NCBI RefSeq assembly: GCF_044324875.1
Contig: NZ_CP172185.1
From: Escherichia coli
GTDB taxonomy: Bacteria; Pseudomonadota; Gammaproteobacteria; Enterobacterales; Enterobacteriaceae
Direction: 5' to 3' (one strand)
DNA: 64,000 nt
Shown here: in pieces, positions 46,843-47,026 of the stretch
How positions within the stretch are numbered: the stretch's first letter is position 1
How the letters are laid out: each line of letters begins with the position of its first letter
Translations under genes and position numbers: made by a program
The notes under the pieces: model-generated
Database searches by the model: none
What the model was told of the DNA's origin: nothing
Seen by the model: only the letters and a program-made list of their open reading frames with translations

Positions 46843-46872
46843 TTGAAAGGTGGTTGTAAATAATGTTACAAT
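46843..46872 (+). promoter_or_regulatory. ISEcp1 outward-reading promoter driving blaCTX-M (-35 TTGAAA, 18-bp spacer, -10 TACAAT)
   Basis: Hexamers at 46843-46848 and 46867-46872 inside the ISEcp1 3' end, upstream of IRR; ISEcp1 is known to supply the promoter for downstream bla genes. Confidence 0.7.
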
Positions 46873-47026
46873 GTGTGAGAAGCAGTCTAAATTCTTCGTG
46901 AAATAGTGATTTTTGAAGCTAATAAAAAACACACGTGGAATTTAGGTTAGACTATAAATAGAAAAAGGCGTTTTGACAGACTATTCATGTTGTTGTTAAT
47001 TCGTCTCTTCCAGAATAAGGAATCCC

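Follow-up and report, generated by a model that had tools for sequence, protein, structure and literature searches.

The blaCTX-M-1 gene considered here lies downstream of a complete copy of ISEcp1 in Escherichia coli, within the 64,000 nucleotides of contig NZ_CP172185.1 that were analysed in the current study (the window), and the question raised by this locus is which promoter supplies the mRNA of the resistance gene at its present site. The mechanism by which an IS promoter raises a Kluyvera gene of weak native expression to a clinically relevant ESBL has stood in textbooks for about twenty years. A preceding reading of the letters (the sequence-only reading) had proposed that expression of a chromosomal copy would here depend on a promoter in the 3' end of the insertion sequence rather than on a host promoter. 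Based on comparison with mapped promoters, plasmid-borne units and uninterrupted chromosomes, we conclude that the feature is very probably the constitutive sigma-70 promoter P1 (Pout) of ISEcp1, driving blaCTX-M-1 within a transposed unit of 3,003 bp.

The transposed unit and its chromosomal insertion site

The unit, its borders and the adjoining host gene comprise the following features:

44906-45220, + strand: fliE, a host gene, with its stop 70 bp before the left end of ISEcp1 (annotation in colinear E. coli chromosomes)
45286-45290: left copy of the target-site duplication, TCTAT
45291-46946, + strand: complete ISEcp1 (IS1380 family), 1,656 bp (sequence reading, homology to plasmid units)
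45291-45304: IRL, CCTAGATTCTACGT, the left end of ISEcp1
45477-46739, + strand: tnpA, a DDE transposase of 420 aa (Pfam DDE_Tnp_1_4, E=2e-55)
46933-46946: IRR, ACGTGGAATTTAGG, the right end of ISEcp1
46947-47026, + strand: spacer of 80 bp and of Kluyvera origin, from IRR to the bla ATG
47027-47902, + strand: blaCTX-M-1, a class A extended-spectrum beta-lactamase of 291 aa (Pfam Beta-lactamase2, E=3.6e-42)
47904-47941, + strand: hairpin running into a U-rich tract, between the convergent bla and wbuC genes
47949-48281, - strand: truncated wbuC (orf477), cupin-fold, captured from Kluyvera with bla (open reading frame, plasmid annotation)
48280-48293, + strand: surrogate right end, ACGTAGGTTCCTGG, the right border of the unit (one-ended transposition)
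48294-48298: right copy of the target-site duplication, TCTAT

The unit as a whole (45291-48293), consisting of ISEcp1, blaCTX-M-1 and the truncated wbuC/orf477, is 100% identical over its 3,003 bp to many plasmids, mostly of the IncI1 type, and this identity ends at 48293, directly past ACGTAGGTTCCTGG. The right border of ISEcp1 itself, at 46946, is equally sharp, as homology to thousands of copies in other contexts breaks off exactly there. IRL matches the reverse complement of IRR, CCTAAATTCCACGT, at 12 of 14 positions, while the surrogate end shares 10 of 14 positions with IRL and 8 of 14 with IRR. The tnpA DNA is 100% identical to DNA annotated as WP_000608644.1, an ISEcp1 family transposase, and the wbuC DNA is annotated in plasmids as a WbuC family cupin fold metalloprotein; a Pfam search with the truncated wbuC product returned no match. 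The bla open reading frame is intact, and its nucleotides agree at 100% with plasmid genes that are annotated as WP_013188473.1 and assigned by AMRFinder to blaCTX-M-1 at 100%, so that the allele had been named correctly from the letters.

Concerning the location of the unit, an empty site of 802 bp was built in silico by joining the two flanks and removing one TCTAT. Among complete E. coli genomes, 1,519 have this sequence without interruption (best match 99.9%), with the gene order fliE, an integrase pseudogene remnant and a DUF5503 pseudogene. Positions 28891-45290 and 48294-57844 are colinear with the chromosome NZ_CP180609.1 with a 5-bp overlap, and the 5 bp by which the flanks overlap on the uninterrupted chromosome (L006, 16396-16400) are those of the duplication. 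Since the empty site is found in these chromosomes and the flanks are colinear and bounded by a duplication, the blaCTX-M-1 copy is chromosomal, as the sequence-only reading had taken it to be. The landing point at 45291 (L006, 16397-16495) is the edge of the integrase pseudogene remnant, beside the frameshifted DUF5503 gene. As the insertion lies in decayed DNA, no functional gene was interrupted.

These observations are best explained by mobilisation of bla by ISEcp1 through one-ended transposition, using the surrogate right end inside wbuC/orf477, with an IncI1-type plasmid as the most probable source of the unit and insertion 70 bp downstream of fliE duplicating TCTAT. Because P1 is situated inside the transposed unit, the promoter moved into the chromosome together with bla.

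A search of 5,426 complete RefSeq E. coli genomes found the unit at the fliE site in none of them. E. coli MLI105 was considered as a carrier of a shared insertion and was rejected, as a separate blaCTX-M-15 insertion had been merged with the flanks in this, the only high-coverage match. In that strain (NZ_CP116929.1; L001, 6367-9151) an independent ISEcp1-blaCTX-M-15-wbuC unit is located between yedK and yedF, which like the present site belong to the fli-yed neighbourhood; the position equivalent to the present site is only a few kb away. Insertion of ISEcp1-blaCTX-M into chromosomes is in general well documented (PMC8111917, PMC7527135), and the site near fliE is a new location of a known unit, not a new kind of thing.

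The remainder of the window holds several features of its own. Positions 1-15228 are that end of a lambdoid prophage which carries its tail genes (minor tail L, C40 peptidase, tail tip J and tail fibre), in which an IS66-family transposase open reading frame is present at about 12047-13618. This prophage part abuts a displaced 3' fragment of a tRNA-Ser gene (15167-15228), and an ARAGORN scan of the window gave no intact tRNA. In the closest reference chromosome, the yersiniabactin island is nearby instead. The central part of fliC (57845-58757 and 59021-59034), the usual variable region of the H antigen, is unaligned to the otherwise colinear reference.

The ISEcp1 promoter and the predicted bla transcript

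The non-coding stretch from the tnpA stop to the right inverted repeat measures 207 bp, and it is within this stretch that P1 is found. The signals between tnpA and the bla start codon are as follows:

46843-46848, + strand: -35 hexamer TTGAAA of ISEcp1 P1 (sequence reading, promoter scan, PMC4541600)
46864-46872, + strand: extended -10 element TGnTACAAT, with the TG of -15/-14 at 46864-46865 and the hexamer at 46867-46872 (sequence reading, promoter scan, PMC4541600)
46879, + strand: G, the predicted transcription start, 6 nt past the -10 hexamer (positional equivalence with a mapped start)
46973-46978 and 46995-47000, + strand: weak promoter-like pair in the spacer, TTGACA and GTTAAT separated by N16
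47017-47021, + strand: Shine-Dalgarno sequence AAGGA in the spacer, 5 nt before the bla ATG

The promoter pair starts 104 bp past the stop of the 420-aa tnpA open reading frame, is preceded by a stretch (46821-46842) of 82% A+T, and has a gap of 18 nt between its hexamers by direct reading. The tnpA stop (46739), the -35 hexamer (46843), IRR (46933-46946) and bla (47027) follow one another in this order, all on the + strand. The sequence-only reading had described a TTGAAA/TACAAT pair with 18-bp spacing in the 3' end of ISEcp1 and directed toward bla, which is correct to the base, and the interval that it delimited (46843-47026) opens with the -35 hexamer and closes with the base that precedes the ATG.

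The use of a consensus score as proof of a promoter was rejected, as shuffled sequence holds as many promoter-like sites: a scan of 45200-48600 yielded 10 generic sites against 7.4 +/- 2.5 expected, which is no enrichment. For this reason the significance of the pair resides in its exact match to a mapped promoter and not in its score. Positions 46843-46879 read TTGAAA-N18-TACAAT-N6-G exactly, which is the form given in both PMC4541600 and PMC9330008, and TTGAAA-N18-TACAAT has one match in the window against 0.01 in dinucleotide-preserving shuffles. The spacing of 18 nt between the hexamers exceeds the optimum by one, which counts against P1.

The mapped promoter in question is that of an ISEcp1-blaCTX-M-55 unit on plasmid p628-CTXM with a spacer of 48 bp, in which primer extension revealed a single start, a G at -116, that was assigned to the constitutive promoter P1 (TTGAAA-N18-TACAAT-N6-G) provided by ISEcp1 (PMC4541600). 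Two reviews (PMC9330008, PMC3316993) count ISEcp1 among the insertion sequences whose complete outward promoter has been confirmed by experiment, the former quoting identical hexamers. Published start mapping used spacers of 45/48 bp and 127 bp, and an experiment on the 80-bp spacer specifically was not found in the literature searched.

The distance from G46879 to the bla ATG is 148 bp, giving a predicted leader of 148 nt. Its excess over the leader of blaCTX-M-55 (148 - 116 = 32) equals the difference between the two spacers (80 - 48 = 32), and G46879 is therefore the counterpart of the start base mapped for blaCTX-M-55. RNA polymerase with sigma-70 would accordingly be expected to start at or near this base, and transcription would cross IRR and the 80-bp Kluyvera-derived spacer into blaCTX-M-1. 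Scanning detected no terminator-like site between the predicted start at 46879 and the bla ATG. The fold predicted for 46879-47056 has a z of -1.86, with 6 of 200 shuffles equalling it, and a structured leader was consequently rejected as a feature of note, save for the hairpin between TCTAAATTCTTCGT and IRR considered below. At the other end of the gene, the hairpin at 47904-47941 has a predicted stability of -23 kcal/mol (z = -5.1; none of 200 shuffles was as stable), and the bla transcript is likely to end there.

The spacer between IRR and the ATG (46947-47026) measures exactly 80 bp, as proposed from the letters, and the comparison with published ISEcp1-blaCTX-M-1 junctions that had been suggested was carried out with a concordant result: 80 bp is the length listed for CTX-M-1 (PMC10751039, Table 2), and the sequence is identical to the base in IncI1 (L002) and IncN (L009) blaCTX-M-1 plasmids.

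To place the junction among its relatives, four contexts were aligned, namely those of CTX-M-1 (80-bp spacer), CTX-M-3 (127 bp), CTX-M-15 (48 bp) and CTX-M-123 (45 bp). All four agree in every base of the final 127 bp of ISEcp1, a segment that holds the promoter and IRR, whereas the spacers have only their proximal 45-48 bp in common. The distal 32 nt of the CTX-M-1 spacer (46947-46978) display no similarity to the matching part of the 127-bp CTX-M-3 spacer (L003), while the proximal portions of approximately 48 bp differ at one base, A46999 against T. This suggests that the CTX-M-1 junction did not arise by simple truncation of the CTX-M-3 junction.

Other possible sources of bla mRNA

The spacer itself holds the pair TTGACA/N16/GTTAAT, which might drive a substantial share of bla transcription from a leader of approximately 20 nt, as the CTX-M-1 counterpart of the promoter P2. 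According to Ma et al. 2011, as related in PMC4541600, the 127-bp spacer of blaCTX-M-3 carries such a promoter in addition to P1 in ISEcp1; P2 (TTGACT ... TTTCGT) was found experimentally and, in the same secondary account, is the weaker of the two even when intact. Its hexamers are quoted there with a gap of N18, against 16 nt read in the CTX-M-3 plasmid with the 127-bp spacer (L003). The pair in the window matches the consensus at 10 of 12 positions, with a perfect -35 hexamer and acceptable spacing, and a T-to-A change relative to the other spacers has turned GTTATT into GTTAAT. Against this, the -10 candidate has no A at position 2, where this base is near-essential, it fails the rule of the scanner, which made no call there on the + strand, and the bases that do align with P2 are degraded, with CAGACT in place of TTGACT at -35 and ATTCGT in place of TTTCGT at -10. 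Native Kluyvera bla genes, moreover, are weakly expressed and require the IS promoter (PMC3316993). A spacer promoter was thus rejected as the dominant driver, given the missing A and the degraded P2-aligned bases, and even a substantial share from this pair is improbable; a minor second start may arise from it.

Transcription might equally arrive from further upstream, with read-through from the tnpA promoter or from the FlhDC-dependent fliE promoter supplying much of the bla mRNA, in which case expression of resistance would be tied to the chromosomal site. The three genes fliE, tnpA and bla are all on the + strand, and no + strand terminator-like site was detected from the fliE stop to IRL or from the tnpA stop to P1 (fold z of -0.20 and 0.16, respectively); only a weak G-U-rich hairpin (46769-46790) is present between fliE/tnpA and bla. 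The transcript would nevertheless have to traverse 1.7 kb of the insertion sequence, and transposase promoters are generally weak, which counts against read-through from either gene. Primer extension in the plasmid context disclosed a single start, at P1 (PMC4541600), and the increased transcription of blaOXA-232 has been credited to the promoter in an ISEcp1 remnant of about 200 bp (PMC9330008). Remnants of this kind, devoid of tnpA and with only 144-208 bp of ISEcp1 left, frequently precede resistance genes. Read-through as a major source is hence scarcely credible, and the preference for P1 stands. That blaCTX-M-1 is silent or non-functional in the chromosome, the promoter match being without consequence, deserves practically no credence, as the open reading frame is undamaged and plasmid copies from ESBL-producing isolates share the promoter, leader, Shine-Dalgarno sequence and coding sequence at 100% identity.

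The retention of P1 in shortened copies of ISEcp1 was also assessed, using evenly spaced matching E. coli records, of which 27 had ISEcp1 joined to a group-1 bla gene. In this sample, whose members are not phylogenetically independent, both P1 hexamers are kept in 26 of the 27 bla-linked remnants, several of which were cut just 40-140 bp ahead of the -35 hexamer; one example is an IncN plasmid in which IS26 truncation leaves 144 bp of ISEcp1 before blaCTX-M-1. In the one exception, IS26 cut at the equivalent of 46859, between the hexamers. In this record, NZ_JBRNXJ010000004.1 (1186-1220), the P1 hexamers are split upstream of blaCTX-M-15; TGnTACAAT is retained there, and the TTGCAA of the IS26 end, 15 nt upstream, completes an apparent hybrid promoter. 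The retention of P1 in remnants is, in a sample of this kind, no more than suggestive of its role.

A further element is located just behind the predicted start. The sequence TCTAAATTCTTCGT at 46886-46899, 33 nt before IRR, matches both terminal repeats of ISEcp1 at 11 of 14 positions, although other stretches of the window also reach this level by chance. TCTAAATTCTTCGT runs in the opposite orientation to IRR (46933-46946), with which it would form a hairpin of approximately 14 bp in the predicted bla leader, and internal binding of the transposase is a possible role. That TCTAAATTCTTCGT, which occupies +8 to +21 of the P1 transcript, acts with IRR as a regulatory hairpin on transcription or transposition, or that the adjacency of fliE adds FlhDC-dependent read-through, is very improbable; were the latter true, bla expression would be partly coupled to motility regulation.

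From the identity to the mapped promoter we infer that P1 is active in the chromosomal copy and is probably the main source of its bla mRNA. The proposal that the IS promoter drives bla is therefore upheld on the strength of that identity, while the independence from host transcription that accompanied it need not be exclusive, since read-through from fliE or tnpA may add to the output of P1. The weak spacer promoter may likewise make a minor contribution.

Significance and comparison with known ISEcp1-bla units

The arrangement of ISEcp1, P1 and blaCTX-M-1 is already known, and there is nothing new in its interpretation. The importance of the locus is that blaCTX-M-1 has become fixed in the chromosome within a unit that is self-sufficient, bringing its own promoter and an intact transposase, and it should therefore be expressed in a plasmid-free cell, be stably inherited and still be able to transpose. 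A chromosomal blaCTX-M-1 of this nature is relevant to surveillance and is not a new biological finding.

The nearest relatives are the units of the IncI1-type plasmids NZ_LS999562.1, NC_023329.1 and NC_024979.1, which share all 3,003 bp, including the promoter, the spacer, the allele and the surrogate end. Only the location differs, in that the present unit occupies the chromosome, 70 bp past fliE, within its own TCTAT duplication. The IncN plasmid NZ_CP043186.1, in which ISEcp1 is truncated by IS26, agrees with the window in promoter, 80-bp spacer and bla allele; it keeps 144 bp of ISEcp1 and is incapable of self-movement, whereas ISEcp1 in the window is complete and its tnpA intact.

With respect to the promoter, P1 of blaCTX-M-55 on p628-CTXM is identical to that described here in its -35 hexamer, spacing, -10 hexamer, start base and position relative to IRR. 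The two loci differ downstream, with a spacer of 80 bp against 48 bp and a leader of 148 nt against 116 nt; in the 80-bp spacer, the distal 32 nt are specific to the CTX-M-1 lineage. A promoter in ISEcp1B upstream of blaCTX-M-19, reportedly described by Poirel et al. in 2003 (reference 120 in PMC9330008), is likewise among the closest known systems. Chromosomal ISEcp1-blaCTX-M insertions elsewhere, namely that of E. coli MLI105 and those of PMC8111917 and PMC7527135, likewise represent one-ended transposition of a unit with its own promoter, and differ from the present one in bla allele, spacer (48 bp), unit length and site.
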